Source: Verrucomicrobiia bacterium (GTDB lineage: Bacteria; Verrucomicrobiota; Verrucomicrobiia; Palsa-1439). From it: a DNA stretch of 64,000 bases. Made by a program: the position numbers and the translations under genes. The stretch lies in NCBI GenBank assembly GCA_050013395.1, contig JBEKFI010000006.1:12303-76302 (forward strand), read 5' to 3'. Under the pieces are notes generated by a model, which was not told the DNA's origin, searched no databases, and was given only the letters and a program-made list of their open reading frames with translations. Below, piece by piece: positions 3-43,425 of the stretch (its first letter is position 1; every line of letters starts with the position of its first letter).

Positions 3-1562
3 ATGGAGCGATGGAGTAATGGAGCGATGGGAACGACCGAACCCAGTACTCCAGCACTCCAACACTCCATCACTCCGTTTGTTGGTTTCTCTTCCATCAC
101 CAAAACGTTCGTCGGTGTGACGGCGCTGGACGGCGTCAGCCTCGCGATCGAGCGCGGCGAATGTCACGGGTTGATGGGCGAGAACGGCGCGGGCAAATCC
201 ACGCTCGGCAAAATTCTGGCGGGCATTCATCGTCCCGACTCCGGTGAAATTCGTATCGACAGCAAACCGCATCATTTCCACTCGCCCCGCGACGCGGCGC
301 GAGCTGGCGTCGGCATGGTGCACCAGGAACTGGCTTTCTGCCCCGACCTGACCGTTGCCGAAAACCTCAGTCTGGGTCAGTACCCGCGCCGGTTCGGCAT
401 CATGACCGACCGCCGCGCGATGGTGGCACGCGCGCAGAAACTTCTCGGCGAGATTGGCGTCACGCTCGACGTGCGTCAGCCGATGAAGCAACTCACCACC
501 GGCCAGGAACAACTCGTTCAGATCGCCGCTGCGGTCGGCACCGGCGCCAAGATCCTCGTCTTCGATGAACCGACCAGTTCGCTGTCGGAAGCCGAGTCGC
601 AACGCCTGTTCGAGTTGATCGAGCGGTTGCGTCAACGCGGCGTGACGATGATTTACGTCTCGCATCGGCTGCCGGAAGTGTTCCGGTTGTGCGACCGCAT
701 CAGCGTGTTGCGCGACGGGCGTTACGTCGGCACGCTCAGCCGCGCCGACGCCACACAGGACAAAGTGGTGCAGATGATGATCGGGCGCCCGCTCGCCGAC
801 TATTTCCCGCATCATCTCAGCGTCCCGCGAGGCGGGATGAAACTGCGGGTCAAAAACCTCACGTCGCCGGGAAAGTTTGAGGATATTTCCTTCGAGGTGC
901 GCGCCGGGGAGATTGTCGGCCTGGCCGGCCTCGTCGGTTCCGGCCGCAGCGAAGTGGCGCAAGCCATCTTCGGCCTGGACCCGGACGCGCGCGGCACCGT
1001 GGAAGTGGACGGCCAACCGTTGCGGCTCGGTTCCGCGCGGGAAGCGCTGCGGCGCGGCGTCGGTCTGATCCCCGAAGACCGCAAACGTCAGGGACTGGTG
1101 TTGATGATGAGCGGTCGCGGCAATTTCTCGTTGGCGATTCTGGATCGATTGCGCAGGTTCGGGTTGCTGAACCGCAAACAGGAAGCCTGCGAGGCCGGGG
1201 AGCTGTTCGCGCATCTGCGCGTGAAAACGCCGAGCATCGAGACGCCCGTGGCCGCGCTCAGCGGCGGCAACCAACAGAAGGTCGTCCTCGCCAAATGGCT
1301 CGCCGCCCACTGCCGCATTCTCATGGTGGACGAACCGACGCGCGGCGTGGACGTCGGCGCGAAGGCGGAGATTCATGGATTGATCGATCAACTCGCCAAC
1401 GAAGGCAGCGGCGTGCTGTTGATCTCCAGCGAACTGCCCGAAGTCATCAATCTTTCGACGCGCATCCTCGTGCTGCGGGCCGGCCGGATCGTTGGCGAAG
1501 TCTCGCGCGACCAGGCGAACCAGGAGACACTGATGCGGTTGATGGCGGGGATTGGGTCGTGA
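3..1562 (+). CDS. Sugar (ribose/xylose-type) ABC transporter ATP-binding protein with two nucleotide-binding domains
   Basis: Two Walker A motifs (GENGAGKST; GLVGSGRSE) and a signature motif (LSGGNQQKV). Domain order is RbsA/MglA-like. The start may be the internal ATG at 27. Confidence 0.8.
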   Translation: MERWSNGAMGTTEPSTPALQHSITPFVGFSSITKTFVGVTALDGVSLAIERGECHGLMGENGAGKSTLGKILAGIHRPDSGEIRIDSKPHHFHSPRDAARAGVGMVHQELAFCPDLTVAENLSLGQYPRRFGIMTDRRAMVARAQKLLGEIGVTLDVRQPMKQLTTGQEQLVQIAAAVGTGAKILVFDEPTSSLSEAESQRLFELIERLRQRGVTMIYVSHRLPEVFRLCDRISVLRDGRYVGTLSRADATQDKVVQMMIGRPLADYFPHHLSVPRGGMKLRVKNLTSPGKFEDISFEVRAGEIVGLAGLVGSGRSEVAQAIFGLDPDARGTVEVDGQPLRLGSAREALRRGVGLIPEDRKRQGLVLMMSGRGNFSLAILDRLRRFGLLNRKQEACEAGELFAHLRVKTPSIETPVAALSGGNQQKVVLAKWLAAHCRILMVDEPTRGVDVGAKAEIHGLIDQLANEGSGVLLISSELPEVINLSTRILVLRAGRIVGEVSRDQANQETLMRLMAGIGS

Positions 1563-1608
1563 AGCGTGGAGCGTCGGAGCGTGAGAGCGTGGAGCGCAAG
1601 GGAATTGT

Positions 1609-3106: not shown

Positions 3107-3225
3107 GAGGTCGTGAAGCGTGGAGCGTTAGAGCGTGGGAGCGACAGGCAGAACTTTGTCCCAAACACTCCGGCACCGGTTCTGGTTGCGCGGCGGAGGA
3201 AAAAACGATAGGTAAGGGGGCAGGT

Positions 3226-14814: not shown

Positions 14815-16016
14815 ACGCCGACGCGCTCCAGCATCGCCCCCAACACCTTGCGCGCGTCAAACATCTGCTCGGCTATTCCGCGGGCTGCGGCACTGTGCCT
14901 CGCGTAATCGGCATTGATGTGATCGATGCCCGCGATCGCTTCTTCCGCCGTGCTGAACGCAAAAAGCCCGTTGCCGGTCGGATAAATCTTGCTCCAGTCT
15001 GTGTCCTGCAACACGCAGGGTCGCCCGAGCGCCAGATAACACGCGCTGCGGCAACTGAACCAGCCGCTGCGCGATTTGACGTAGCCTTCCTTGGCCACGC
15101 TCCATTCGCCCTTGGAGTTGCCCAAGTAATCGCGGTAGGTCCACGGATCAGGGAGATGCTCGCTCGGCTCGATGATCCGCCAGCCTTTTTGTTGGAGGAG
15201 TTCTGTCGGCCGCTTCATGCCCGGCCCCATGCCCATCGCGATCTCAAACTTCTGCGTCGTCTTCTGAGGCAGGTCAATAAACTTCATGAACTCGACATCT
15301 TTTTGTCCCCAGGTCTCTCCGCCGTACTCGCAGCCCTTGTAAGAAACCCAGTTCATCACCGTGGTGAATACATCGCGGACATCTTCCGTGGGAGCGGCGT
15401 CCCCGCCGCGATTCTGGCCCGGTCGCGGCGGGGACGCCGCTCCCACAAACGGCCACCAATCCAGCACGATCGGCTGGCGCGTCGGAATCCATTTCAATCC
15501 TGCCATCGGCACACGGCAATCAGGCGCTCCGATGTTCTCGGCGAACGTGAAATGAAAATCGTGGGCGTGGATGCGATCGATCACGCCTTGGTTGCCCGAC
15601 ACCAGCGCCACCTGCGTGAACATCGGATCGGAATCGATAAAAACCTTTCTGGGGATTGCGACGTACTCCGGCCGCAACCAGCCGCAGCCGGACACGTTCA
15701 GGTAAACGTCGGCGCTGGCGCAGAATTTCCTGGCCTCGGCCTCGCTAACGCCATGGTAACTGCCGTCGGGCGCGTTGCGGTAAATCCAGCGGTCGCCGAG
15801 GCTGAGCCGGTTCATCACGTCGCCGAGATACTTGACGTTGTAGCTGCAATCGTCGCTGACGGTGTTCTTGATCGGGTCGTACGGCCACGTCTCCGTGTCT
15901 TCGAGATACCACACCTCATGCCCGAGCAGGCGAAATCCCTCGACATACTGCAGGTAATCCCACGCCACCCCGCCGAACGCATACTGCCCGACCAGCCCTG
16001 TCACAATGATCCGCAT
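14811..16016 (-). CDS. CgeB-like glycosyltransferase family protein (paralog 2), carrying an in-frame palindromic-element insertion
   Basis: Same family as 13618..14814. Contains the extra segment GAASPPRPGQNRGGDAAPT, encoded by the palindromic element at 15388..15446, which is absent from the paralog. Confidence 0.45.
   Translation of the reverse strand: MRIIVTGLVGQYAFGGVAWDYLQYVEGFRLLGHEVWYLEDTETWPYDPIKNTVSDDCSYNVKYLGDVMNRLSLGDRWIYRNAPDGSYHGVSEAEARKFCASADVYLNVSGCGWLRPEYVAIPRKVFIDSDPMFTQVALVSGNQGVIDRIHAHDFHFTFAENIGAPDCRVPMAGLKWIPTRQPIVLDWWPFVGAASPPRPGQNRGGDAAPTEDVRDVFTTVMNWVSYKGCEYGGETWGQKDVEFMKFIDLPQKTTQKFEIAMGMGPGMKRPTELLQQKGWRIIEPSEHLPDPWTYRDYLGNSKGEWSVAKEGYVKSRSGWFSCRSACYLALGRPCVLQDTDWSKIYPTGNGLFAFSTAEEAIAGIDHINADYARHSAAARGIAEQMFDARKVLGAMLERVGV
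15388..15446. repeat. RPE-like palindromic element (23-bp inverted termini GTGGGAGCGGCGTCCCCGCCGCG) inserted in-frame in a CDS
   Basis: Near-perfect inverted repeat gtgggagcggcgtccccgccgcg ... cgcggcggggacgccgctcccac. The same termini occur at 48106..48175. Confidence 0.7.
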
Positions 16017-16547: not shown

Positions 16548-16632
16548 AACCCTCACCCTGACCCTCTCCCTTGGAAAGGGAGAGGGGAAATCTCCTCGCC
16601 CCGCATGCGGGGAGAGGACCAAGGTGAGGGGC
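16548..16632. repeat. ~90-bp nested palindromic intergenic element (copy 1 of 4)
   Basis: CCCTCACCCTGACCCTCTCCC ... GGGAGAGG..GGTGAGGG with internal hairpins. Related copies at 37092, 61711 and 63197. Confidence 0.75.
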
Positions 16633-17573: not shown

Positions 17574-17729
17574 ATGTCTCCTTGTTCGGTGGATGATGGT
17601 TGAGCCGTATCGTTCATAAACTTGTCCTTGCGAGCCTGTGTGAACTAGGAGCGCATCGTCGCGGCAAGAATGCCGCTCCCACAACGATACAGTTTGTCCG
17701 CACAGCAAGCAGCTCGTGCAATGCACGGG

Positions 17730-19779: not shown

Positions 19780-20011
19780 GCTGTCATAACGCCGATTACC
19801 GTACCAAGCGCATTGGGTGGTAAATATCCTGAACAGTGCTTTGGGATGATGACCTAGGAGACCGTCAGATCAACTGTGTACGACCGAAAAATACCTGTCG
19901 AATCCACGTGCGTCAAGTGCCGAATTCAGTTTATTTCAGGTATTGAACCGACTTTGGCGGGAGGACCTTTCGCGCCGCTGCCGAGCCTCCTCCGCCAAGT
20001 GCCTCCGCCGA

Positions 20012-20267
20012 AGCTACGGCACTCACGCGAAGGCGGAAGCAGCATTGGCTGCGACGGCCGGAAGCTATGGCGCGTAGGTGGTCAGGCCCGCGACTCCTCG
20101 CAGCAGTCGCGCGCAGAAGCGCGCTCCTACAGCTCGCACCGCAGCTTCTCAAGGCTGGTTGCCCAAACGTCTTCGGTCGTTGTAGCCGCGCTTCTACGAA
20201 ACGCGGGGCATCGGCTTGCCGAAGAGATTCGGCGCTTCATTCACCCCGAAAGCCTTCGGGGCAGGGA
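20012..20267. repeat. ~250-bp structured non-coding repeat (copy 1) ending in hairpin CCCCGAA-AGCC-TTCGGGG
   Basis: About 90% identical to 30848..31090. No conserved reading frame. Contains internal complementary segments. Confidence 0.75.
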
Positions 20268-20346
20268 CGGACTGCGGATCGAGACGAATGCCGCAATCCA
20301 GCGGCATGTTGATGACGTCCGCGCAGTCGGCCATCTTTATCCTGAC

Positions 20347-20559
20347 TCAGTCCTTTTTGGGGCTCACGACCAGCAACACGATTCCGCCGACCAGCGCGAG
20401 CGCCCCGACGACTGGCGGGATAAAGTGGCTGTGGGTGGTCTCGATGTGCACTCCGAGGAAATCGACGGGCTTTCCCGGAGTCTTGAAAGTGATGCCCGAG
20501 TAAGCGAGCACCACGATGCCGAGAGCGATCAAGATGACGGCAATGGTTTTTGTATTCAT
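20347..20559 (-). CDS. Small two-TM membrane protein (DUF3185-like)
   Basis: 70 aa with two hydrophobic helices. A GGAG RBS lies upstream. Confidence 0.45.
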   Translation of the reverse strand: MNTKTIAVILIALGIVVLAYSGITFKTPGKPVDFLGVHIETTHSHFIPPVVGALALVGGIVLLVVSPKKD

Positions 20560-20588
20560 TTCGAATCTCCAGTTTCCTTGTATCAGTT

Positions 20589-20747
20589 AACCGCTTCTTA
20601 CGACGCTTTTCGGCCCTGAATGATGTTGACCAGAATCATGATCACGGCAATCACCAGCAGAACGTGAATGACTCCGCCCATCGTGTAACTGCTCACCAGT
20701 CCCAGCAGCCACAGAACGATTAGTACGACAGCTATTGTCCACAACAT
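20589..20747 (-). CDS. lmo0937-family small membrane protein
   Basis: The 52-aa sequence MLWTIAVVLIVLWLLGLVSSYTMGGVIHVLLVIAVIMILVNIIQGRKAS matches the lmo0937 family signature. RBS aaggagaat. Confidence 0.6.
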
Positions 20748-22261: not shown

Positions 22262-22377
22262 TCGACTTCCTTCTTTCTGTTGTTACGTCTTTGGGTTGGA
22301 AGCAGGCTACGCGATGGGCTGGCCCTTCGCTATGGGGTAAAACCCTACCTTGGATGTTCAGGGGTCCATGGCCATGC

Positions 22378-24181: not shown

Positions 24182-24668
24182 AGCGCTTGTCTCAGTCTAC
24201 AATCACCTGCTCGCCGTAAAGCCAAGTGGGATGGTTATTCAGTTACTAAGTCTTCATGATGTTTCGACCTGCTGGACGGTTCTTAACCATCCCTTTTCCA
24301 CCACGCCCCTTGGCCGCGCGCTTTTTAGCTGCAGTCATCCTGCCGCCTCTGCTTTTCTTTGCCATATGCAATCACCCCTTCCCTTGTTGCGTTGTTACGT
24401 TTTCCATTACGAAGCATGCTAAGTCGTGGGCTGGCCCTTCGCTATGGGGTGTATACCCCATAGACGGCTTGCCGACGACGCCCTCCAGTTTCTCCAACAA
24501 CAACCCTGGCCCGGTAACGCAAACCGGGCGTCAAGCAGGCGGTGGCTGAAGTCGAACCGCGAGAGTCAACCCTTCTGAGCGAATCGCGGCGCAGGCGTAC
24601 CGGCAGACGTACCGGCATTCAATCGCGGGCTGGTTCGCCGAAGGAGAGCTTGCCCCGACCGGCTCACC

Positions 24669-30357: not shown

Positions 30358-30759
30358 ATGAAAACGACCGCGGGTTTGTGGATTGATCATCGGAAGGCTG
30401 TGATCGCGATTGTCTCGGCCGAAGGGGAAGAGACTATGGAGATCAGATCAAACGTTGAGAAACAGCCGGGACGTTTTGCTGGCGTACGTTCGACGACTCA
30501 CTATGGACAGCAGGTGCCGGCAGATGATAGCCACGAGAGGGAGTTTACGGGCCATCTCAACAATTACTACGATGAGGTGATTGCGGCGATTCGTGATGCC
30601 GAATCGATTCTGCTGTTTGGTCCGGGTGAGGCCAAGGGCGAGTTGAAACAACGTCTCGAGAAAGACAAACTCGGTGGACACATCATCGCTGTGGAAACAG
30701 TTGACAAGATGACTGATCGCCAGATCGCGGCAAAAGTCCGCGAGTACTTTCACGAATAG
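30358..30759 (+). CDS. Hypothetical protein
   Basis: Strong RBS aaaaaggagaa. 133-aa ORF with no recognisable motifs. Confidence 0.4.
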   Translation: MKTTAGLWIDHRKAVIAIVSAEGEETMEIRSNVEKQPGRFAGVRSTTHYGQQVPADDSHEREFTGHLNNYYDEVIAAIRDAESILLFGPGEAKGELKQRLEKDKLGGHIIAVETVDKMTDRQIAAKVREYFHE

Positions 30760-30847
30760 AGTTCAGCCATCGGATCGAGATCGAACCACCCAGCACGGTG
30801 CGGCAGCGGACGCGAACAGGCCGCGCCGCCGAGCTCGCGCAGGCGGG

Positions 30848-31090
30848 AGCTACGGCACTCACTCGAAGGCGGAAGCAGCATTGGCTGCGACGGCCGGAAG
30901 CTATGGCGCGCAGGTGGTCAGGCCGCGACTCCTCGCAGCAATCGCGCGCCGAAGCGCGCTCCGCAGCTTCTCAAGGCCGGTTGCCCAAACGTCTTCGGTC
31001 GTTGTAGCCGCGCTTCTACGAAGCGCGGGGCGTCGGCTTGCCGAAGAGATTCGGCGGCTTCATTCACCCCGAAAGCCTTCGGGGCAGGGA
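30848..31090. repeat. ~250-bp structured non-coding repeat (copy 2)
   Basis: About 90% identical to 20012..20267, including the terminal hairpin CCCCGAAAGCCTTCGGGG. Confidence 0.75.
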
Positions 31091-31198
31091 AGCGCCGCTA
31101 CATCGGCACGACGAAGGTTCTGGAGAGGATCGAAATGTAGCCGCACCCTTCAGGGTGCGCTCGTCGGCATCTGAACCCGCGCAGGCTGAAGCCTGCGG

Positions 31199-34100
31199 CT
31201 ACGGAACCAATCGGATGCGGTAGAAGCGCGAAGGCGCGGTGGTCGCGGCACCTATGTCAAGATAGTTGGTGGTCGCGTCGCCACTGTCGGGAATGATAAT
31301 CAGTCCGCTGATGTCACTGAAGTTGGTCGTGAAACTGCCGTCGGCGTCGGAGCCGGCCGCCTGCACCGCATTGGTCCGCCCGCCCGCCGTCATCCAAGTG
31401 ATCTCCACATCGTCGCCTTCCTGCACGATGCCGGTAATGCGCAGCCCTGACGCGCTGTTGGTCGGATCGGTGCCGGCCTGAAACTCCTGTAGGTTGGTGA
31501 GTCCGTCGCCGTCGGGGTCGCCACTCGCGCCATCGTTGCCGCTCGAAGACTTCGGATTGAGACCGTAATTCATCTCCCAAACGTTCGGGAGGCCATCACC
31601 GTCGGGGTCGCCGTTGGAACCATTGGCCCCCGTGGGGTCGAACATGTCAAGTCCGTTTGCCAACTCCCAACCGTTTGGCAATCCATCGGCGTCCGCATCG
31701 AAGGACGAAACATAATTGACGCTGAGGAAGAAGACTGTTCCGCCGGTATGTATGAACCGGGAGCAGGCATTGGTCACGACCAGTCGGTCCACCACGAGCG
31801 CGCCGCCGCTGACTGTGAACGTGCCGCCGCGAACGTCCAGCGTTGCGGTGTGCGCCGCGTTAGTAACGTACAGTTTCCCGCCGGCGAGCGTTACCACGCC
31901 CGCTCCGCCGCCGCTGCAGTTCCCGATGACGAAATCGGACGACACTGTGTTGGTGCCACCGACCTGTGTGAATCTGCCACCCGCCGAGGCAGTGATGTCA
32001 CTCACATGCAAACTGCGAGCGAGGACGGTGCCGTTGGATTGTGTTAAGAACCCCGTCTCGGGCAGACCAACCGTGATCGTTCCATTGGTGACAAGTAACT
32101 GACCGCCCGTGATCCAGACTGTCGAGGTGCTGCCCGAGTTGAATTGCCCCATGGCTAGATCGTTTTGAACGGTAAGCTTACCGCCTGCGACAAGAAGCGT
32201 GGGGGAAGATTGATACGATGCTTGGAGCGCGACACCGCGCGCCAGCATATTGCCGTTAGAGACTACCAACGTGCCACGGCTCTGGCCGATGATCACGTCT
32301 CCGTTTGTCACGGTGAGCTGTCCGCCGGTCACCCACACCGTGCCTGTTGCACTCTCGCGCGCAATCCGCAGTTCGGAGCCAAGGGTCATGGTGCCGCCTG
32401 CAACGGTCAGCGTTCCCTTCCCGCCAAGATAGCCAACGCCGTAGTAACCGAAGTCGGTCGTGACAATGCCGTTGGATACGACGATCTGGCCGAAGGTGTT
32501 GTAGTTGCCGAAGAACACAGGCGCGTCGAAGTTTCCACCATTGACAGTGACGATGGCGGGGGCCGATGGGTTGGTGTTTCCGATGTTTAAATAGCGAAAC
32601 GCAGGCGAGATCAGAGTCCCTCCGGTCATCACGTCGAGGCTGCCGCGGACGCTCGCCCCGTTACAACGCAACTCGCCGCCGTTTACCGTGATCTTTCCAC
32701 GCGGATCGGCCAAAGTCCCGACAAGCATTTGCGCGTTGGCGATGGCCAGCACCCCGCCGTCAATTCTCACGGCTCCGTTGGCAACGGTGAGGTTGCTGGT
32801 GTAGGTGCCGCCATTGACCTGCACAGTCGAGTTCGTGATAATCAACAAGCCATTCGTGCTGATCGTGCACTGATTGATAATAGTCAGTGGCGTGTTCGTG
32901 CCCGCATTGGACAGCAGCAATGTATTCGTCGAGCCGGTCGGCGAGGAAAGCGCCAGGTTACTGATCGTCATCGTGCTGGGAAAACTTCCTGATGTACTCG
33001 CATCAATCGTGACAGTCTTGGTGGTGGCGTTGGTGATCAACACCGCCGAGCGACTGGTGGAAGGAACCCTCCCGAACGCCCAGTTGTCGCTGCCTTCCCA
33101 TTTGTCGCTGCCTGTATTGGTCCAGCGACTTTGGTCAGGCGGATGAGACGCCGCGTTGTTCGGCTGCGTGCCCGCTTGGTATTCTTCGAAATTGCTGAAC
33201 CCGTCCCCATCCGGATCGCCACTGGCTCCGTCGTTGCCCGCAGCGGAAAGCGGGTTCAATCCGTACGCGGTTTCCCAACCATTCGGCAGACCGTCGCCAT
33301 CCGCATCGCCGTTGATGTCGAGGGTGGTGGCACTGGCTTGGTTGCTGTAGTCGGAATTCCCTCCCGAGTTATACGCTCGGACGCGGTACCAGTAGGTCGT
33401 GGTCGCCGACAATCCTGTGTCGCTGTAGATCGTAACGTTGCTCGACACGGTTGCGATCTGCGTCCACGTCCCGGGCGTGCCGCTGTTGTCGGGGGCGCGC
33501 TCGATCTTGAAGCCGTCCTCGTTGGCCGCGTTATCCGTCCACCCTAGGTTGATCTGATTGATGGATACCGCCGTTGCTGTCAGACTCGACGGCGGCGCGG
33601 GCGGAAGTGGCAGAGTCGTCGCGCTCGCTTGGTTGCCATACGGCGAATTGCCGCCGGTGTTGTAGGCTCGGACGCGATACCAGTACTTCGTGTCCGCCGA
33701 CACATTCGTGTCGCTGTAGGTCGTGACATCCGCGCCTACAGTTGCGATCTGCGTCCAAGTACCCGGAACTCCGCCATTGTCTGGTGCCCGCTCGGTCAAA
33801 AAACCGGTCTCGTCGCTGGAGTTATCAGTCCATGACAAGTTGATCTGGTTCGTAGAGACGGCGATCGCTGTGAGGGCGGTCGGGGCGGCGGGACTGCACG
33901 TCATCGCGAGACCATGGTACTCACCCGCGGCGATGCTCACCACGCCCATCAATCCATCCGGCGGCGTTATCGAAGTGCCCCAGCTAACGACCGTGCCTTC
34001 ACCTGTCAACGCCAAATTGTAAGAACCGCTGGTGCTGATGGCGACAACGTTGGTCAAACCGTTGGGCGGCGTTGCCTGGCCCTGATCGTTGCGACCCCAA

Positions 34101-36181
34101 CCGACGACGGTGCCATCGCCCTTGAGCGCGAGGCTATATTCATCGCCTGCGGCAACGGCGACAACTCCCGTCAGTCCGGCCGGCGGCGTAGCTTGGCCAT
34201 AGTAATTGTTCCCCCAGCCAACAACGGTGCCATCGCTCCTGAGCCCGAGCCCGTGGATGTCGTAGCCTTTGGCGATGGCGACAATGCCGCTCAATCCTGG
34301 AGGCGTCACGTCACCGTAAGCTCCCCAACCGACGACGGTGCCATCGCTCCGAAGCGCCAAGCTGTCCCAGAAACCGGCGGCTATGGCGACCGCGTTCGTC
34401 AGTCCTGCGGGAGGCGTCGCTTGCCCGTAGTAATTCCAGCCCCAACCGACAACGCTGCCATCGCTTTTGAGAGCAAGGCTGTAGAGGCCACCGGCGGCAA
34501 TAGCAACCACATTCGTCAGCCCGGGCGGAGGCGTCGCTTGTCCGTAGTCATTCGCTCCCCACCCGGCGACATTGCCGCTGCTTGACAAGGCCAAACTATG
34601 GTAACCGCCACCGGAGACAGCCACCACTCCTGTTAGACCGATCGGAGGTGTCGCGTAACCTTCCCAAACAACAATGGCCGGCGGGCACAAGGCCGAGGTG
34701 TTGGTGACCGTGACGCCGGAATAGTCCGAGCTAGTTACAGAATTATACGCCTGCACGCGGTAATAATGAGTGGTGTCGGGGAACAGCCCGGTATTGCGAT
34801 AACTTGTCGTATTAGCTAATACCTGCGCGATCTGCGTGAAGTTCGTCCCGTCGGTGGAACGCTCGATCTTGAACCCGTCCTCGTCGCCGGAGTTATCGGC
34901 CCACGACAAGTTGATCTGGCTACTGGAAACTGTTGTTGCCGTCAGACCCGATGGAGGCGCAAGCGGCGTGGTGGCACTCACTTCGTTGCTGCAGTCTGAA
35001 TTCCCGCCCCCATTGTAGGCCCGCACCCGATACCAATAGGTCGTGTTCGGCAATAGCTCCGTGTCGCTGTGGTTGGTGACATTCGCGCCCACAGTCGTAA
35101 TTTCCGCCCAAGCGCCCGGAACACCACCATTGTCCGGCGCCCGCTCGATCTTGAAGCCATCCTCGTTGTTGGAGTTGTCGGCCCATGACAGATTGATCTG
35201 ATTGGTGGACACGGCTGTCGCCGTCAGAGCTGAGGGAGCAAGAGGCGGTGTCGTAGCGTTTGCTTGGTTGCTGTAGGTAGAATCACCGCCCGTGTTGTAC
35301 GCCCGCACCCGGTACCAATACTTCGTGTCCGCCGATGCTGTCAGATCACTGTAGGCGGTAACGTTCGAACCGACGGTCGCAATCTGCGTCCACGCGCCTG
35401 GAACGCCGCCGATGTCGGGCGCCCGCTCGATCTTGAAACCGTCCTCGTTGCCGGAGTTATCCGTCCACGACAAGCTGATTTGGTTCGACGAGACAGTGCT
35501 CGCAGTGAGGCTCGACGGTGCGGCTGGCGGCAGCGGCAAGGTAGTGGCGCTGGTCTGGCTGCTGTAGGCTGAATCACCGCTCCCGCTGGATGCGCGAACA
35601 CGGTACCAATACTTCGTGTTTGGTGATAACGGGGTGTCGCTGTAAGCCGTAACGTTGCTCGACACGGTTGCGATCTGCGTCCACACGCCCGGAGCACCAC
35701 TGCTGTCTGGAGCGCGTTCGATTTTGAAACTGCTCTCAGTGTTCGAGTTGTCCGTCCAAGACAGGTTGATCTGGTTGGTGGAGATGGCTGTCGCCGTGAG
35801 ACTCGATGGAGGCGGTGGCGGAGTGGTCGCACTGGCCTGGTTGCTGTAGGCGGAATCACCGCCGTTCTTGTACGCGCGCACACGGTACCAGTATCTCGTG
35901 TCCGCTGACACTCCCGTGTCGCTGTAGCTCGTGATATTCGCGCCCACGGTAGCGATCTGCGTCCAAGGTCCGGGAATGCCGCCGTTATCCAACGCCCGTT
36001 CGACCTTGAAGCCGGTCTCGTTGTTGGAGTTGTCCGTCCAAGACAGGTTGATCTGGTTGGTGGAGACGGCAGTGGCCGCCAGGTTCGTCGGCGCTTTCGG
36101 AGCGGCGTGGGCAGAGGAATAAAACGCGGTGAGCCAGAGGAACAGGCCGCATACCGACCAGCATTGAAGGTGCTTCTTCAT
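31199..36181 (-). CDS. Giant secreted/surface protein with fibronectin type III repeats, RCC1-like beta-propeller repeats, thrombospondin type-3-like Ca-binding repeats and beta-helix-like repeats
   Basis: Signal peptide MKKHLQCWSVCGLFLWLTAFYSSAHA. At least 8 FN3-like units (NLSWTDNS..GFKIERA..WYRVRAYN). RCC1 blades (GY.HSLAL..DG.V.GWG.N.YGQ). DADGDGLPNGWE Ca-binding loops. Total length 1660 aa. Confidence 0.7.
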   Translation of the reverse strand: MKKHLQCWSVCGLFLWLTAFYSSAHAAPKAPTNLAATAVSTNQINLSWTDNSNNETGFKVERALDNGGIPGPWTQIATVGANITSYSDTGVSADTRYWYRVRAYKNGGDSAYSNQASATTPPPPPSSLTATAISTNQINLSWTDNSNTESSFKIERAPDSSGAPGVWTQIATVSSNVTAYSDTPLSPNTKYWYRVRASSGSGDSAYSSQTSATTLPLPPAAPSSLTASTVSSNQISLSWTDNSGNEDGFKIERAPDIGGVPGAWTQIATVGSNVTAYSDLTASADTKYWYRVRAYNTGGDSTYSNQANATTPPLAPSALTATAVSTNQINLSWADNSNNEDGFKIERAPDNGGVPGAWAEITTVGANVTNHSDTELLPNTTYWYRVRAYNGGGNSDCSNEVSATTPLAPPSGLTATTVSSSQINLSWADNSGDEDGFKIERSTDGTNFTQIAQVLANTTSYRNTGLFPDTTHYYRVQAYNSVTSSDYSGVTVTNTSALCPPAIVVWEGYATPPIGLTGVVAVSGGGYHSLALSSSGNVAGWGANDYGQATPPPGLTNVVAIAAGGLYSLALKSDGSVVGWGWNYYGQATPPAGLTNAVAIAAGFWDSLALRSDGTVVGWGAYGDVTPPGLSGIVAIAKGYDIHGLGLRSDGTVVGWGNNYYGQATPPAGLTGVVAVAAGDEYSLALKGDGTVVGWGRNDQGQATPPNGLTNVVAISTSGSYNLALTGEGTVVSWGTSITPPDGLMGVVSIAAGEYHGLAMTCSPAAPTALTAIAVSTNQINLSWTDNSSDETGFLTERAPDNGGVPGTWTQIATVGADVTTYSDTNVSADTKYWYRVRAYNTGGNSPYGNQASATTLPLPPAPPSSLTATAVSINQINLGWTDNAANEDGFKIERAPDNSGTPGTWTQIATVSSNVTIYSDTGLSATTTYWYRVRAYNSGGNSDYSNQASATTLDINGDADGDGLPNGWETAYGLNPLSAAGNDGASGDPDGDGFSNFEEYQAGTQPNNAASHPPDQSRWTNTGSDKWEGSDNWAFGRVPSTSRSAVLITNATTKTVTIDASTSGSFPSTMTISNLALSSPTGSTNTLLLSNAGTNTPLTIINQCTISTNGLLIITNSTVQVNGGTYTSNLTVANGAVRIDGGVLAIANAQMLVGTLADPRGKITVNGGELRCNGASVRGSLDVMTGGTLISPAFRYLNIGNTNPSAPAIVTVNGGNFDAPVFFGNYNTFGQIVVSNGIVTTDFGYYGVGYLGGKGTLTVAGGTMTLGSELRIARESATGTVWVTGGQLTVTNGDVIIGQSRGTLVVSNGNMLARGVALQASYQSSPTLLVAGGKLTVQNDLAMGQFNSGSTSTVWITGGQLLVTNGTITVGLPETGFLTQSNGTVLARSLHVSDITASAGGRFTQVGGTNTVSSDFVIGNCSGGGAGVVTLAGGKLYVTNAAHTATLDVRGGTFTVSGGALVVDRLVVTNACSRFIHTGGTVFFLSVNYVSSFDADADGLPNGWELANGLDMFDPTGANGSNGDPDGDGLPNVWEMNYGLNPKSSSGNDGASGDPDGDGLTNLQEFQAGTDPTNSASGLRITGIVQEGDDVEITWMTAGGRTNAVQAAGSDADGSFTTNFSDISGLIIIPDSGDATTNYLDIGAATTAPSRFYRIRLVP

Positions 36182-36522
36182 TTCTCTCACCCAATCTCGT
36201 CGCGACCGAAGACTGATACGCCGAATCCTAACGAGCGGGGTAGGGGCTAGCAGTTTACTGGTTTCGAGTCGAGCGAAAACTGGCGTTCGGCGAGGTTTCC
36301 AAAGTGGACGGGAGACCTTCGGTCGAAGACGGTGCGCGGTCAGGAGACCGGCGCACAACGTCACGACACGCTTCATTTGGAGGGCTACGCTCCGTCGTGG
36401 CCGCCGGAACATCACGGACGCGACGGAGAGCGCGTCCCTCCAACCAGCCGAGCGAATCAACTGTGCCGGAGTACCGGCTTTTGCTTTTCAGGCTACGACC
36501 GGTCGGCTAAGGTTCTCCCGCC

Positions 36523-37083
36523 ATGCAGCCGATGCGCGACGACCTCGAAGAAATCCTGATCACCGAACAGCAAATCCAGCAGCGAATGGATGCGTTGGCG
36601 TTGGAAATCCAGTGCGAGTATGCGGCGAAAGATTTGACGTTGGTGGCAGTGCTGACAGGCAGCGTGATGTTCATCGCCGACCTGTTGAGACGATTGCCGA
36701 TGCAGCTCCGGTTCGATTACATCGGCGTTTCCAGTTACCAAGGCGAGACGCGTTCGACGGGCGATCTCATCGTCACCAAAGCCTTGACCTTGGACGTCCG
36801 CGGACACGACGTGCTCGTGGTGGACGATATTCTCGACACGGGACTGACGTTGGTGAAAATCCGCGAGATGATTCTCAAGCTGCAGCCGCGCAGCCTGAAG
36901 TTCGGCGTTTTTCTGGAGAAGGACGTCCCTCACCATGAAGGGTTTCAAGCCCACTTTGTCGCCTTCCGCATCCCGGACAAGTTCGTCGTCGGCTACGGAC
37001 TGGACTATCAGGAGCGGTACCGCAACCTGCCGTATGTGGCGACGCTCCGACCCGAAGTAACCAGTCATGGAGATGCGATCTAA
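36523..37083 (+). CDS. hpt: Hypoxanthine-guanine phosphoribosyltransferase
   Basis: PRPP-binding motif VLVVDDILDTGLT and overall Hpt-like sequence. Length 186 aa. Confidence 0.85.
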   Translation: MQPMRDDLEEILITEQQIQQRMDALALEIQCEYAAKDLTLVAVLTGSVMFIADLLRRLPMQLRFDYIGVSSYQGETRSTGDLIVTKALTLDVRGHDVLVVDDILDTGLTLVKIREMILKLQPRSLKFGVFLEKDVPHHEGFQAHFVAFRIPDKFVVGYGLDYQERYRNLPYVATLRPEVTSHGDAI

Positions 37084-37091
37084 GATGTCGG

Positions 37092-37172
37092 CCCCTCACC
37101 TTGATCCTCTCCCCCGAGCGGGGAGAGGAATTCCCCTCTCCCTTTTCGCAAGGGAGAGGGTCCGTGTGAGGG
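37092..37172. repeat. ~90-bp nested palindromic intergenic element (copy 2 of 4)
   Basis: CCCCTCACCTTGATCCTCTCCCCCGAGCGGGGAGAGG...CCCTCTCCCTTTTCGCAAGGGAGAGGGTCCGTGTGAGGG. Confidence 0.75.
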
Positions 37173-37233
37173 TTTTGCCTGCCACTGCTCATCGCAATCA
37201 ATCGCAAATGCAATCCGCTCCCACAGAAATGCC

Positions 37234-37863
37234 ATGACCATCACCGTCCAATTCTTCAGTTTTCTGCGCCCACTTGTTGGGCAGAATGAACTACAACTTG
37301 AAGTCGCGCCAGAATCGACCGTGGCCGATGCGCTGGCTGAGTTACACCGCCGGTTCCCCAAGCTGAAGGAAGCGGAGAAGACCACGCTGATCGCGGTCGG
37401 CGTCGAGTTTGCGAAGCCCAAGGACAGGCTGCGCGACGGCGACGTGCTTGCGTTAATGCCGCCGCTGCATGGCGGTGCGGACGACGAACTTCTCATCACC
37501 GACCAGCCGATCCATCCAGTCGAAGCGCACGTCGGCCCGGCCGTAGGCGACGTGGGCGGTATTGTCGTGTTCTGGGGGGTCGTGCGCGACATCGAAGAGA
37601 GTCAACAAATCACGGCGCTCGATTACACCGCCTACCGCGAAATGGCCGAGCACCAGTTCCGCAACTTGCTCGCCGAGACGCGCAAGAAGTGGCCGCTCAA
37701 ACGCATCCGCGTCGTTCATCGTCTCGGCGTCATCCCCGTCGGCGAGCCGTCGCTGTTGGTGCGCGTCGAAGCCGCTCACCGCGGCGAAGCGTTCGCCGCG
37801 GCGCAGTTCATCATTGACGAACTGAAACAGAAAGTCCCGATCTGGAAACGCGGCGCTACTTGA
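37234..37863 (+). CDS. Molybdopterin synthase MoaD-MoaE fusion protein
   Basis: N-terminal MoaD-like ubiquitin fold ending in PPLHGG, then a MoaE catalytic-subunit-like domain. Confidence 0.75.
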   Translation: MTITVQFFSFLRPLVGQNELQLEVAPESTVADALAELHRRFPKLKEAEKTTLIAVGVEFAKPKDRLRDGDVLALMPPLHGGADDELLITDQPIHPVEAHVGPAVGDVGGIVVFWGVVRDIEESQQITALDYTAYREMAEHQFRNLLAETRKKWPLKRIRVVHRLGVIPVGEPSLLVRVEAAHRGEAFAAAQFIIDELKQKVPIWKRGAT

Positions 37864-38182
37864 CGACGTTCTTCGGCGTGCCCGCTGCGAATGCCACGAT
37901 GTTGTCCGCTGTCGTCTGGAGGATTCGCTCCAGCGCTTCCTGGCTGTTGAAGGCATTGTGCCGGGTAAAGACGACGTTGGACTTCTTCAGAATGACGTGG
38001 TTCTGAATCGCCTGCCGTAACCGCTCGGGGTTCACCGCGTCGCCCAGCAATGCGCTCTCTTCGTAGATAGCCTCTTCGCCCTCCAACACCTCGCGGATCG
38101 CCACCACCTCGTGCGCGCCGTCCACGTGCTCGCGCAGGTATTGCTCTTCCCAGTCGTGAAGTTCAAAGAAGACGATTCGCAT
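37856..38182 (-). pseudogene. Possible remnant of a D-isomer 2-hydroxyacid dehydrogenase (N- and C-terminal catalytic-domain pieces, NAD-binding core missing)
   Basis: MRIVFFEL... start, and a C-terminus TRHNAFNSQEALERILQTTADNIVAFAAGTP resembling the family's C-terminal segment. Only 109 aa. Confidence 0.3.
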
Positions 38183-38391
38183 CTCACCGCTCTTTGTCAT
38201 TCTGAGCGAAGCGAAACCGCTGCTGGCCGTCTGTCGTTCGACGGCAAATCTCTGCTGTTTCTCGCAGTCTCCGGAACGACTGAGACCCTTCCCCTTCGCG
38301 GACTCAGGGCTTCGGCTCACGACACTCAGGGTGACAAAACCAAAGTGGCGGGCACTCCTCAAGCACGGTTTTGGCGAAAGGGTGCGACCCT

Positions 38392-39504
38392 TCATGCGTG
38401 ACGCGCTTCCCATTGTTGTTCAGCTTCGGTGAAGTATTCGACGCGCACCTTCTTCCATTCCTTGGTCGAGTAGAGCGCGGCATAGTCGGTGATGCCGGTT
38501 TCCCTGGAAATCTCCGCCAGCACGGTTTCGCACTCTGCCGGTGTGCGGCCGTGAACCATCGTGAACAGGTTGTACGGCCAGTCGGGATAGGTCGGGCGCC
38601 GATAGCAGTGCGTCACCGCGCGAAACCCGGCCATCTTCTCGCCCGCGGCCAGAATCTCGGCGTCGGTACCGCCCACGGCCCAGACGCCCATGGCGTTCGC
38701 GGTGAACCCGACCTCGCGATGCCGCAGCACGGCGCTGAAGCGGCGCATCCTGCCGTTTTCGATCATGGCCGCAGCAGTCCGCTGCAGTTCTTCGAGGCTG
38801 ACGCCGAGTCGCGACGCGGTGGCGACGAACGGTTCGGGTTCAATCGCCAAGTCCTTCTGCATCTCGCGCACGAACCGAATCTCCAAATCCGTCAGCGACG
38901 TGTCGGCTGCCTTGCGGTCTTTGTGCGTGTAGCCACCAGACTTCTTCTCGCACAGATTGGCTGTGCCTTCGACGTCGAGTTCGACGCCGATCTTGAACAG
39001 GTGGAGTGTCGGCAGCAGCCGCGTCGTGATCGCGCCGCTGGTCTCGTGGAGAACCTGCACCGTCCGCTCCAGACCGAGCCGCGAGTCGGGGCTGACTGCG
39101 ATGGTGTACCAGAGGTTGAACGCGTGGTTGCGCTGGTAGTTGTGCGAGACGCCGGGGTGCGCGTTGACGATCGCAGCGGCGGCGTCCATCCCGCTCCGAG
39201 CGGGATCCACGCGGGCGGAGTCGTACTGCGCCGCCACCAGCGACGATTCGTAACCGAGCGAGCGCGTGTCGAAAATGGCGCTGATCTGGCGGATGATTTT
39301 GGCAGCCTTCAACGCCCGCACGCGTTCCATCACCTCCGCCTCGCCGACACCGCCGAGCCGTTCGCCGACCTCGCCCCAGGGTCGGGGCGCGATCGGTACC
39401 TCGGTTTGCAGGAGGTTCAACAGCTTCTTGTCGGTGCCATCCATACGGTCTGCATGCGTCTCAGCGCCAAGATACGGGAACTTGCCCGCCGCGGCAACCC
39501 GCAT
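38392..39504 (-). CDS. Lrp/AsnC-like tandem-domain siroheme decarboxylase (AhbA-AhbB / NirDL-type fusion)
   Basis: Two Lrp/AsnC-like modules. The N-terminus DKKLLNLLQTEVPIAPRPWGEVGERLG is typical of AhbA/NirD-family proteins. Confidence 0.5.
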   Translation of the reverse strand: MRVAAAGKFPYLGAETHADRMDGTDKKLLNLLQTEVPIAPRPWGEVGERLGGVGEAEVMERVRALKAAKIIRQISAIFDTRSLGYESSLVAAQYDSARVDPARSGMDAAAAIVNAHPGVSHNYQRNHAFNLWYTIAVSPDSRLGLERTVQVLHETSGAITTRLLPTLHLFKIGVELDVEGTANLCEKKSGGYTHKDRKAADTSLTDLEIRFVREMQKDLAIEPEPFVATASRLGVSLEELQRTAAAMIENGRMRRFSAVLRHREVGFTANAMGVWAVGGTDAEILAAGEKMAGFRAVTHCYRRPTYPDWPYNLFTMVHGRTPAECETVLAEISRETGITDYAALYSTKEWKKVRVEYFTEAEQQWEARHA

Positions 39505-39883: not shown

Positions 39884-40163
39884 ATCCGCATACGAACTCG
39901 CCCTGGAGCGGATGGCGAAACAATCGCCACAGCCCACCCGTAAGCTCACCGCCGAAGGCAAGGCGAAGTTGGCCGAGCTTGACCGCGTTTACACGGCGAA
40001 GATCGCCGAGCAGGAGTTCGCGCTGAAACCCAAGATTGCCGAAGCCCGCGCCGCGGGAAAGTTTGAAGACGCCGAGAAGCTGGAAGAAACCCTGCACGCC
40101 GAAGTCCAAAAGCTCCGTGGCAAACTCGAAGCGGAGAAGGAAGCCGTGCGGCGGGGCAAGTGA
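39873..40163 (+). CDS. Small coiled-coil hypothetical protein
   Basis: 96-aa charged, helical ORF overlapping the Rieske gene stop. The hairpin repeat follows it. Confidence 0.3.
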   Translation: MAIKSAYELALERMAKQSPQPTRKLTAEGKAKLAELDRVYTAKIAEQEFALKPKIAEARAAGKFEDAEKLEETLHAEVQKLRGKLEAEKEAVRRGK

Positions 40164-40215
40164 ACGCCTGAACGCTCAACGCTCAACGCTTTCACCCCGA
40201 AAGCCTTCGGGGCAA

Positions 40216-40914
40216 GCCGCTCAACGCCAGTCTGTCTGCGCTCTGGTCAGCGGCGGCTTGGACAGTAGCGTGATGCTGGCGATGCTGGCGAAGCGTCACG
40301 CGAAAGTTTATCCTGTCTTCATCCGCCACGGCCTCGTGTGGGAGGAGGCGGAGCTTCGGGCACTGCGGCAATTCCTTCGCGCTCTTCGTCGTTCTTCATC
40401 CTTCATCCCTCATCCTTCATCTTTGGCTTCACTCACCGTCCTCTCTCTTCCCGTGCGCGACATTTACGGCGCGCACTGGAGCACGACTGGCCGCAAAGTT
40501 CCGCATGCCAGTACTCCTGACGACGCAGTCTATCTGCCCGGACGAAACCTGCTGCTGCTCTCCAAAGCGGCTGTCTTCTGCGCCGAGCGCGGCATCCCCA
40601 TCATCGCCGTCGGCTCGCTCGGCCACAACCCGTTCGCCGACGCGACGCCCAAATTCTTCCGCGACTTCTCTGCTGCCGCCAGTGCCGGGCTAAGCTGTCG
40701 GCTGAAAGTCATCGCACCGTTTCGCACGTTGACGAAAGAGCAAGTCATTCGGCGCGGTAAACATCTTCCGCTTCGCCTCAGCTTCTCTTGCATATCCCCG
40801 CGCCGCGACCAGCACTGCGGCCGCTGCAACAAATGCGCCGAACGACAGCGCGCGTTTCAGGAGGCGGGCATCCATGATCTAACCCAATACGCGTCCAACA
40901 GCTTGTCACCCTGA
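40216..40914 (+). CDS. queC: 7-cyano-7-deazaguanine synthase
   Basis: PP-loop LVSGGLDSS and C-terminal zinc motif CGRCNKC. No canonical start codon sits immediately upstream of the PP-loop, so the start is unresolved. Confidence 0.7.
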   Translation, partial: AAQRQSVCALVSGGLDSSVMLAMLAKRHAKVYPVFIRHGLVWEEAELRALRQFLRALRRSSSFIPHPSSLASLTVLSLPVRDIYGAHWSTTGRKVPHASTPDDAVYLPGRNLLLLSKAAVFCAERGIPIIAVGSLGHNPFADATPKFFRDFSAAASAGLSCRLKVIAPFRTLTKEQVIRRGKHLPLRLSFSCISPRRDQHCGRCNKCAERQRAFQEAGIHDLTQYASNSLSP

Positions 40915-42569: not shown

Positions 42570-42582
42570 AGCGTGAGGAGCG

Positions 42583-43058
42583 CATGAAGGTAGCGGATTA
42601 CAGAGACTTGCGGGTGTATCAACTGGCGTTTGAATCGGCGATGGAGATTTTCGAGTTGAGTCGAGCGTTCCCAACGGAAGAGAAATTACGCGCTCACCGA
42701 TCAGATGCGGCGGTCGTCACGGTCGGTCTGCGCGGACATTGCCGAAGCGTGGCGAAAACGCCGTTACGAGGCGGCGTTTGTAAGCAAACTCAGCGACGCC
42801 GATGGCGAGGCAACGGAAACCGAAGTGCACCTTGAGTTCGCGCTGCGCTGCGGTTACCTGCAGAACGACGTGCACGCCCGGCTCAAAGACAAGTACGATC
42901 ACATCTGCCGGCAGTTGACGCTCATGATGGATGACGCTGCGGCTTGGTGCACGCTCGGTGAACGCGTCCGGGAAGAGCTTGCGGAGTACTTCGCCGCACG
43001 CTCCCACGCTCCACACGCTCAACGCTCTCACGGTTCAATGGACGCTCCACGCTCATGA
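42583..43058 (+). pseudogene. Four-helix-bundle protein (TIGR02436-like, '23S rRNA intervening-sequence protein' family) with an apparent +1 frameshift
   Basis: Frame A encodes MKVADYRDLRVYQLAFESAMEIFELSRAFPTEEK. After a single extra T near 42680 the family motif continues in another frame (YALTDQMRRSSRSVCADIAEAWRKRRY...). Confidence 0.5.
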
Positions 43059-43345
43059 CGCTCAAACGCTCTGACGATCCGTTTATTTGTCCGAACTGCG
43101 GTGCAGATGTGCCGGCCGGAGCGAAGGCGTGTCCTGAGTGTGGATCGGATGAAAAGACCGGTTGGTCCGACAAAACCATCTACGACGGGACTGGCATCGA
43201 AGACCCGGACGAAGACGATTTCAACTACGAAGATTGGAGGCGGCGCGAGTCTGGCGGCGCACCCCACAAGAGCAGTATGGGCTGGCTCTGGTGGCTCGTG
43301 GCAGTGGTGGTGTTGGTGATGGTTGTGTGGTTGATGATTAGGTAG
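43055..43345 (+). CDS. Zinc-ribbon protein with C-terminal TM helix
   Basis: CPNCG...CPECG zinc-ribbon motif. C-terminal helix WLWWLVAVVVLVMVVWLMI. Confidence 0.4.
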   Translation: MTLKRSDDPFICPNCGADVPAGAKACPECGSDEKTGWSDKTIYDGTGIEDPDEDDFNYEDWRRRESGGAPHKSSMGWLWWLVAVVVLVMVVWLMIR

Positions 43346-43425
43346 GGGCGGACCGCCGGGCCGCCCGCAACTTGATGACAATCGGACACGGCGCGCCCGG
43401 CGGTCGCGCCCTACCCGAGATGTTG

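Follow-up and report, generated by a model that had tools for sequence, protein, structure and literature searches.

A BIME-like cluster of GTAG-tagged REP hairpins probably occupies two intergenic loci in a peat-soil Verrucomicrobiia genome

The window, a 64,000-nt stretch of a Verrucomicrobiia genome, contains two copies of an intergenic repeat. Copy A (20013-20267, no strand assigned) was delimited by alignment and by its neighbours, and lies between an ORF for a 70-aa membrane protein (20347-20559, minus strand) and the coaE-rho operon (19779-17730, minus strand). Copy B (30849-31102, likewise without strand) has convergent flanks, namely a 133-aa ORF (30358-30759, plus strand) and the gene of a 1753-aa fn3/RCC1 protein (31199-36460, minus strand). 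Alignment of copy A with 30849-31090 (MAFFT and global alignment) gave 234 matches, 7 mismatches and 15 gap columns, corresponding to an identity of 97.1% when only aligned bases are counted and of 91.4% when gap columns are included. The gaps represent three indels of 1, 13 and 1 nt, and because of these indels the copies share no reading frame. These results agree with the first-pass annotation, which had described two copies about 90% identical, with small indels and no common frame.

Both copies contain the hairpin CCCCGAA-AGCC-TTCGGGG. Its 18-mer, CCCCGAAAGCCTTCGGGG, occurs exactly at 20244-20261, 31067-31084 and 40195-40212, that is, at three sites where 0.01 would be expected, and no shuffle out of 100 reached three occurrences. 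The hairpin had been taken as the end of both copies. It is indeed present in both, but the end is only apparent, as copy B continues for 12 nt past its earlier end and includes AAGCGCCGCTACA. This 12-nt extension closes an outer stem and supplies a GTAG tag; it is missing from copy A, and the homology between the copies stops at the hairpin because copy A is truncated. The third hairpin, reported beside queC at 40196-40213, proved to be an exact copy whose position had been off by one.

We then resolved the last ~100 nt of the repeat into an inverted doublet of GTAG-tagged REP hairpins. The first REP reads TGTAGCCGCGCTTC-tac-GAAGCGCGG, and the second, on the opposite strand, reads TGTAGCGGCGCTTC-[CCTG-hairpin-TGAAT]-GAAGCCGCCG. 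In copy B the first is a short-loop GTAG REP at 31003-31028 (plus strand; TGTAG-CCGCGCTTC-tac-GAAGCGCGG) with a 9-bp stem (31008-31028). The second is a long-loop GTAG REP at 31052-31102 (minus strand; TGTAG-CGGCGCTTC-[CCTG CCCCGAAGGCTTTCGGGG TGAAT]-GAAGCCGCCG), which was recognised from its fold and from covariation in its outer stem of 9-10 bp with one bulge. Together they make up a head-outside inverted doublet of ~100 nt that is REPIN-like, with both GTAG tags outermost. The loops of the two partners measure 3 nt and 27 nt, and the hairpin noted earlier is the self-complementary 27-nt loop of the second REP; as a loop module it has no strand of its own, and the equivalent of 20244-20261 in copy B is 31067-31084. 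In copy A, the short-loop REP (20181-20206, plus strand) carries one stem mismatch, A at 20201. Its long-loop partner (20230-20267, minus strand) is truncated, retaining the inner arm, the inner hairpin and CAGGGA and missing the outer arm and the GTAG tag. TGTAG tags are accordingly found at 20181 and 31003 on the plus strand and at 31102 on the minus strand, and the tag is lost from the long-loop REP of copy A.

The left part of the repeat holds a third, degenerate GTAG REP together with small hairpins. In copy A this REP lies at 20109-20131 on the minus strand and reads TGTAG-GA-GCGCGC-ttct-GCGCGC (TGTAGGAGCGCGCTTCTGCGCGC, 20131-20109). The 13-nt deletion (CCTACAGCTCGCA) takes its tag in copy B and leaves GCGCGC-cgaa-GCGCGC at 30944-30959. 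Complementary blocks within the copies had been offered as a sign of secondary structure, and the example given for them was inexact: AGAAGCGCGC lies at 20115-20124, its complement is not on the same strand, and the nearest sequence is CCGCGCTTCT at 20186. The REPs of copy A alternate in orientation (20109-20131, minus; 20181-20206, plus; 20230-20267, minus). Immediately past copy B we found a second, different inverted REP doublet at 31136-31203 (no strand assigned; TGTAGCCGCACCCTTCAGGGTGCG ... CGTAGCCGCAGGCTTCAGCCTGCG in reverse complement), which is kept in the related locus L034. Copy B and this doublet together make 30849-31203 a BIME-like cluster of REPs in alternating orientation. Many other hairpins tagged with GT[AG]G occur in the window, often as inverted doublets, as at 15388-15446, 31136-31203, 43342-43414 and 48106-48175. 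The sequence TGTAGCNGCGCTTC, allowing up to 2 mismatches, occurs 10 times in the window against 1.9 expected.

To assess structure, we folded the doublet (31001-31104, 104 nt) as single-stranded DNA and obtained z scores of -4.6 and -5.2 relative to shuffles. Pairing of TGTAGC with GCTACA (TGTAGC/GCTACA) closes this fold, inside which lie three hairpins. The whole 264 nt gave an MFE z of only -1.6/-1.8 relative to shuffles, and the left 171 nt, with a z of -0.2, folded no better than shuffles. Hence, of the ~250-bp structured repeat that had been proposed, the terminal ~100 nt folds well, whereas the whole and the left part do not. The term REP cluster covers only part of the left ~165 nt, because this part folds no better than shuffled sequence and is not dispersed.

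We next searched for the hairpin in other genomes. A 22-nt hairpin pattern was scanned against one genome per species and against metagenome contigs. In the genome scan, 6 contigs of the MAG 'Verrucomicrobiia bacterium SPRUCE 690' carried the pattern, and there was a single site each in 'SPRUCE 380' and, with unrelated flanks, in a Pontibacter; the metagenome scan yielded 24 further stretches, mostly from peat. Neither the 250-bp unit nor the window's genes were on any of the stretches from the two hairpin scans. The family consensus is (N)GCGCTTC-RTTCA-hairpin-CAGG-GAAGCGC(N)GCTACA, and this hairpin-REP usually lies 20-60 nt downstream of a short-loop TGTAGCNGCGCTTC-nnn-GAAGCGC. The usual order in related loci is a short-loop REP, a spacer and a long-loop REP with the tags outside, and this inverted layout is shared by L001, L006, L008, L018, L020 and L029. 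All 16 non-identical units of the hairpin-REP that came from related MAGs and peat metagenomes keep the CTAC tag and have an outer stem. The outer stems vary yet still pair (GCGCTTC/GAAGCGC, GGCGCTC/GAGCGCC, CGCCCCG/CGGGGCG and CCACGGCG/CGCCGTGG), and RNAalifold detected double-sided compensatory changes at 5 of the 15 predicted pairs.

Two related loci bear on how the long loop relates to the short one. The orthologous loci L002 and L009 differ only in one REP loop, which is 'tgc' in L009 and CCTG-CCCCGACATCCAATGTCGGGG-TGAAC in L002, which indicates that a single REP can exist in a short-loop or a long-loop state. A related hairpin in L042, GGCTCCGAAAGCCTTCGGAGCC, carries a compensatory stem change and directly abuts a CTAC tag, indicating that the hairpin can itself serve as a REP body.

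To follow the history of the two loci, we collected contigs of relatives by exact-protein look-ups and two homologue searches. The syntenic contigs comprise one of the same strain (L033, 99.9% identical) and relatives that are ~87-97% identical. At the copy B locus, L035 is without 30837 to 36473, which holds the REP cluster and the 1753-aa fn3/RCC1 gene. L034 keeps the cluster and is without ~100 nt between two 9-bp direct repeats CAGGCCGCG (30817-30825 and 30919-30927 in the window, no strand assigned) and without 30 nt between CTCCT repeats. L034 also has the 13 nt that are present in copy A and absent from copy B, which indicates that the ancestral copy B locus resembled copy A. At the copy A locus, L049 and L050 show the same truncated junction of the long-loop REP as copy A and are missing ~121 nt of the middle, while the contigs L051 and L046 stop inside the element. 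That relatives have deleted different internal blocks argues against a functional 250-nt unit.

The identity between the two copies (~97%) equals that of the closest orthologues (96-97%) and exceeds that of L051 (92%). Three related lineages retain the copy A locus, and two retain that of copy B. Across 452 kb of related DNA, matches to the left 168 nt are confined to the two loci and their orthologues, and the 250-bp unit is not a high-copy family. The suggestion of a dispersed non-autonomous element therefore holds for the ~50-100-nt hairpin-REP and its doublet, which are dispersed in related genomes. The 250-bp unit does not fit this description, as its left ~165 nt was found nowhere beyond the two loci and their orthologues. 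Judged from the sequences compared, the most likely history would be that the whole cluster was duplicated once, long ago, or converted later, and has since been eroded by small deletions between short repeats.

The remaining copy of the hairpin lies in the 5' region of queC as a solo unit, TTCA-CCCCGAAAGCCTTCGGGG-CAAGC (40191-40217), among heptamer units (40171-40227, plus strand). The heptamers, AACGCTC/CGCTCAAC, occupy 40171-40190 and 40218-40227 on either side of it. The solo hairpin has no GTAG tag, and its outer stem is at most 4 bp. Solo flanks of the form TTCA-hairpin-CAAG[C/T] occur at seven sites (40195 in the window, two in L041, L005/L019, two in L027, and L030) and differ from those of REP-embedded copies, TTCA-hairpin-CAGGG. 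Solo hairpins occupy either tandem heptamer arrays or in-frame positions within queC and folP. The heptamer is AACGCTC in the window, TCCTTCA in queC, CCTTCAG in L003 and CCACCNN in L005, and arrays are also present in L041 and L027. At the queC site, the solo hairpin is present in the window and in L041 and absent from L034-L036 and L042.

We further examined the start of queC. No in-frame ATG, GTG or TTG lies between 40164, just after the upstream stop at 40163, and the QueC domain, which begins at residue 69 of the ORF. Since the queC region is identical in an independent assembly, the missing start is real. In L034-L036, queC has a long inverted repeat of heptamers with a TTG start in its right arm (MKVERSGVCALVSGG), and in L042 it begins with ATG and is preceded by a tagged REP. 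L041 carries the same solo hairpin, which is in frame from a GTG overlapping the upstream stop (VNAERSTVSPRKPSGQ...). The L041-type GTG is thrown out of frame in the window by an additional C plus an additional heptamer, 8 nt in total. The absence of a recognisable start codon, which the first-pass annotation had noticed and put down to the hairpin, was thus confirmed, but the hairpin alone is not the cause, as it is the extra 8 nt that shift the frame. L041 contains a second hairpin copy in frame within the gene (LRKPSGQ), at a place where the window has four CTTCATC heptamers, and a hairpin unit accounts for a 7-aa insert in the QueC protein P0004. In L005, the hairpin and adjoining heptamer-like sequence (36 nt) add 12 residues to a loop of dihydropteroate synthase (DHPS), as judged against solved structures.

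Direct repeats of 6-10 bp around four of the solos were considered as target-site duplications and rejected, as the repeats are units of the heptamer arrays. In L027, two hairpin copies share one and the same 'duplication'. The repeat periods, and the inserts they imply, are 35 and 38 nt, which is incompatible with intact reading frames, and the queC relatives show replacement with no clean insertion. A tentative and, in our judgement, rather doubtful reading is that the 27-nt TTCA-CCCCGAAAGCCTTCGGGG-CAAG is a tiny palindromic element that propagates independently. Such an element would enter REP loops, giving rise to long-loop REPs, as well as heptamer arrays and, in frame, genes such as queC and folP; it would be a non-cyanobacterial counterpart of the small dispersed repeats (SDR), copied possibly by a mechanism that does not use a transposase.

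Taken together, the repeat belongs to a known kind, GTAG REP, REPIN or BIME-like, and is ordinary intergenic hairpin DNA. We consider it probable that a BIME-like cluster of GTAG-tagged REPs, mobilised in the manner proposed below, occupies the two intergenic loci of this peat-soil genome. Its core is the ~100-nt head-outside inverted REP doublet, and the left part of about 150-168 nt contains the degenerate GTAG REP and short hairpins and is specific to these loci. The elements may be selfish or structural DNA that persists and spreads as single-strand hairpins. The stem and GTAG tag would be recognised by a REP-associated tyrosine (HUH/Y1) transposase (RAYT) encoded elsewhere in the genome; RAYT-type mobilisation is suggested here by analogy with known REPs. 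A search for a RAYT/IS200-like gene, using phmmer with approximate queries and a regular expression for the HUH...Y motif, gave no match in the window and 55 loci (~452 kb of related DNA, a small fraction of a genome). No precise insertion or excision polymorphism of the doublet and no target-site signature was seen at the loci compared. The two mosaic copies probably arose when the whole cluster was duplicated or ectopically converted once, and small deletions between short direct repeats would now be wearing them down. Any cellular effects would be secondary, the candidates being hairpins at mRNA 3' ends, hot spots of recombination and indels, and disturbance of neighbouring gene starts.

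An alternative that overlaps with the REP-cluster interpretation is that the hairpins are kept mainly for host function, as stabilisers of mRNA 3' ends, terminators or protein-binding sites, so that the copies are conserved regulatory modules. Both copies follow the 3' ends of coding regions and have unidirectional or convergent genes on either side, and a role of the hairpins at mRNA 3' ends may be envisaged. Orthologous retention in three lineages at the copy A locus and two at the copy B locus, and a paralogue identity (97%) matching that of the closest orthologues, point the same way, as do reports, in the portion of the literature consulted, that REPs elsewhere in bacteria stabilise mRNA. 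However, no T tract follows the hairpins, module content varies freely among close relatives, and L035 is without the entire copy B cluster. We therefore regard host function as an unlikely main reason for their presence.

We also considered a classical MITE, a deletion derivative of an IS that has terminal inverted repeats, depends on a DDE transposase for its movement and is flanked by target-site duplications. The ~100-nt doublet does have 14-nt terminal inverted repeats, TGTAGCNGCGCTTC, and the solos at first seemed to be flanked by direct repeats of 6-10 bp. However, the doublet termini are the GTAG tag and stem of two REP hairpins and not IS ends, no target-site duplication lies beside the doublets, and the 250-bp unit itself has no inverted termini. 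The direct repeats at the solos are tandem heptamer units with periods of 35 and 38 nt, which are not simple in-frame insertions in intact genes. A match to a known IS fragment had been named as an outcome that would count against a new element; BLAST against 72,556 plasmid records, which are rich in IS elements, revealed no similarity. A MITE origin is accordingly improbable.

The first-pass annotation had also suggested a small RNA gene family, in which each copy would be a ~250-nt structured sRNA gene with its own promoter, ending at the 7-bp hairpin. The 97% identity of the copies, the numerous local hairpins and the G-T pairs in some outer stems of the family fit this suggestion, and G-T pairs in stems have been taken as a hint of RNA-level function (Di Nocera 2013, PMC3733652). 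It had named an Rfam scan as one check; no match reached the gathering score in the window, and at E<=1 only chance-level eukaryotic families appeared. Neither a sigma-70-like promoter nor a terminator-like site was found inside either copy, and no T run follows the hairpin on either strand. Compensatory rather than random substitutions between the copies had been named as a further check, yet all 7 substitutions are non-compensatory, and 2 of them disrupt a stem in one of the copies. The whole unit folds with an MFE z of just -1.6/-1.8 and its left 171 nt with -0.2, blocks are missing at orthologous loci (~100 and 30 nt in L034, ~121 nt in L049, 13 nt in copy B), and the truncation of copy A falls inside a stem. 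We consider a small RNA gene family very improbable. The sole promoter-like site, TTGACG-17-TATTTT (19916-19888, minus strand), is located upstream of coaE and not within copy A.

That the copies are pseudogene fragments of a duplicated protein-coding gene is scarcely credible: long spurious ORFs do cross them (19876-20619, plus strand, 247 aa; 30881-31174, plus strand, 97 aa), and gene finders have called a 46-aa ORF (20194-20334, minus strand) in other assemblies, but a protein search with the six frames joined found nothing at E<=0.001 among 5.8 billion clusters, the indel lengths are not multiples of three, and the unique part of the 46-aa ORF differs from L049 by 6 non-synonymous and 2 synonymous changes. 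This ORF, which runs into copy A, was also considered as a real gene in its own right and was rejected on the same substitution pattern.

The REP clusters matter chiefly for annotation and assembly. They break metagenome contigs, as in L046 and L051, which end within the element, and they seed spurious ORFs, such as those of 46 aa and 247 aa. They flag variable chromosomal sites as well; copy B has its left edge within about 10 nt of the edge of a 5.6-kb segment, carrying the 1753-aa fn3/RCC1 gene, that is absent from a 97%-identical relative. The 5' end of queC has been reshaped by related small repeats, which leave the gene with no ordinary start codon in this strain. These results add uncultured peat Verrucomicrobiia to the known range of GTAG-type REPs that have nested self-complementary loops, and the filled, empty and decayed orthologous sites provide a tractable set for studying how such repeats originate and erode.

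Several known systems resemble these elements in part. In the BIMEs of E. coli, Y and Z REPs alternate in orientation within a mosaic. The clusters described here are similar in their alternating REPs, unequal loops and other short motifs in between, and differ in that the sequence is unrelated and the mosaic is seen at just two loci; the likeness is one of layout, and any binding of IHF, gyrase or Pol I here would be hypothetical. The SDR of heterocystous cyanobacteria, reportedly described by Elhai et al. in 2008, are said to be small hairpin units with compensatory variants. The solo hairpin seems to share with them, as far as these accounts go, a size of ~27 nt, compensatory variants, a setting in heptamer repeats or larger palindromic mini-elements, and presence or absence at orthologous sites, also within genes. 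Phylum and sequence differ, so the resemblance is in behaviour, not membership. Rickettsia palindromic elements (RPE) are 100-150 bp long. As with RPE and intragenic REPs, in-frame palindromes are tolerated here in surface loops of housekeeping proteins (the 7-aa QueC and 12-aa DHPS inserts), although the inserts are smaller, at 21-36 nt.

REPINs are inverted REP doublets that fold as a hairpin, for which RAYT-mediated movement has been proposed (Bertels & Rainey 2011, PMC3116915). Like REPINs, the doublet consists of two inverted REPs and a spacer and forms one long single-stranded DNA hairpin (z about -5), and it is the doublet rather than the single REP that recurs in related loci. Unlike REPINs, it is a heterodimer with loops of 3 nt and 27 nt, and the approximate queries recovered no cognate RAYT in the window and the related ~452 kb.

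The closest counterparts are the GTAG-tagged REPs, which Di Nocera, De Gregorio & Rocco (2013, PMC3733652) described from eight phyla, Verrucomicrobia among them. In that survey, Opitutus terrae was 'highly enriched' in GTAG REPs and had GTGG variants and the most intragenic copies. The stems were 6-13 bp with complementary changes between sub-families, and self-complementary loops reached 27 bp. Head-outside dimers had 20-100-bp spacers and included heterodimers with unequal loops, and the REPs preferred sites between unidirectional or convergent ORFs (PMC3733652). One difference is that the loop module here also occurs as a tag-less solo. Like the published elements, those described here have a 7-10-bp GC-rich stem with an unpaired GTAG at one end and compensatory sub-families (PMC3733652), a likeness drawn from architecture and not from the 24 published consensus stem and loop sequences. 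They likewise show short loops and long self-complementary ones, head-outside dimers with 20-100-bp spacers, placement between unidirectional or convergent genes, occasional intragenic copies, and coexisting families that include GTGG-tagged ones.

We compared the 5' region of queC in the window (40160-40235) with loci L055, L041, L034-L036 and L042. In the source strain, this interval contains no in-frame ATG, GTG or TTG near the queC 5' end. The 5' sequence was identical in an independent Logan assembly, in which the gene caller placed the queC start downstream of the SGGLDS motif. In L041, a relative with the same solo 18-nt hairpin at queC, a GTG overlaps the upstream TGA, and the queC frame from this GTG runs through the hairpin. 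Relative to L041, the window carries one additional C and one additional AACGCTC heptamer, and because of these 8 extra nt the GTG is out of frame in the window. The start-less queC could be a dead gene, could begin translation at a non-canonical codon (CTG at 40169-40171), or could switch frame through changes in the number of heptamer copies.

Upstream of queC, at the site orthologous to window 40164-40230, the syntenic relatives L034 (9930-10010) and L035 (9950-10030) carry a long inverted repeat, each arm of which consists of heptamers in tandem. The left arm reads AACGCTC AACGTCC AACGTTG AACTCTC AACTCTC and is followed by the loop, and the right arm reads GTTGAAT GTTGAGG GTTGGAC GTTGAAA GTTGAAC and contains the queC TTG start. 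Tandem arrays with a unit length of 7-8 nt, all from a single family, (C)AACGCTC / GAGCGTT(G) / CGTGGAG, were found at several gene ends in the window (1558-1596, 3112-3143, 40171-40190, 42529-42575 and 42997-43080), and the arrays on the two sides of a 117-aa ORF (42705-43058) are in opposite orientation. Within the queC coding region (40394-40421), four CTTCATC heptamers encode SSSFIPHPSS, a segment absent from more distant QueC homologues.

The hairpin, which forms the loop module of the CTAC-tagged long-loop repetitive extragenic palindrome (hairpin-REP), also occurred in other contexts. In MAG SPRUCE 380 (L005 5340-5400, and also in L019), dihydropteroate synthase has 12 inserted residues, PPTTSTPKAFGA, in one of its loops when compared with PDB 5umg and others; these residues are encoded by the hairpin together with the heptamer-like sequence next to it (36 nt in total). 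In a third context, four soil metagenome loci (L012, L013, L014 and L021) contain the same 18-nt hairpin as GGAGCGCA-hairpin-CAGCTCTGCGC. This form lacks the CTAC tag and is probably part of a repeat family from another lineage.

Two intervals varied between the window and its syntenic relatives. The 5.6-kb segment 30837-36473, comprising REP cluster B (copy B of the GTAG-tagged REP mosaic with its adjoining doublet) and the gene for a 1753-aa fn3/RCC1/TSP3 protein, is replaced by 62 nt in L035 (97% identical), and L034 carries two smaller genes (732 and 396 aa) at this position. The left edge of the variable segment coincides with the left end of copy B to within ~10 nt. Between the phosphoribosyltransferase and AsnC-type regulator genes, the relatives have ~280 bp (L034 7903-8182, L035 7929-8203) holding a hairpin-REP with the variant loop CCCCGAAAGCTTTCGGGG. 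The corresponding interval of the window (37046-38408) is ~1.36 kb long, unrelated in sequence, and contains two small minus-strand ORFs.

Around copy A, the other mosaic copy, a 46-aa minus-strand ORF (20194-20334) runs from unique DNA into the repeat, and three other assemblies have it annotated as a gene. Its unique part differs from the related locus L049 by six non-synonymous and two synonymous substitutions, indicating that the ORF is probably spurious. A 247-aa plus-strand ORF (19876-20619) covers all of copy A and is antisense to real genes. Just outside copy A, a sigma-70-like promoter upstream of coaE-rho (19888-19916, minus strand; TTGACG-17 nt-TATTTT) is kept in L049-L051.

Further repeats were present in the window. 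A 73-nt direct repeat (22266-22338 and 24378-24450; 77% identical, spacing 2.1 kb) ends in GGGCTGGCCCTTCGCTATGGGGT and lies near the Mla/BON gene cluster. An inverted-repeat family (16549-16574, 37092-37176, 61690-61806 and 63177-63291) has arms CCCCTCACCYTGATCCTCTCCCCCG and GCAAGGGAGAGGGTCAGGGTGAGGGTT, which look like degenerate heptamers, enclosing a G/C hairpin; two copies, 1.5 kb apart, bracket 61.8-63.2 kb. A second REP family, GTGGGAGCGGCGTCCCCGCCGCGA, forms two inverted doublets and two singlets (15388-15446, 17661-17682, 41459-41497 and 48106-48175), one doublet having a 92% match in L009. This family is GTGG-tagged, as is GTAG-20 of Opitutus terrae according to a published report.
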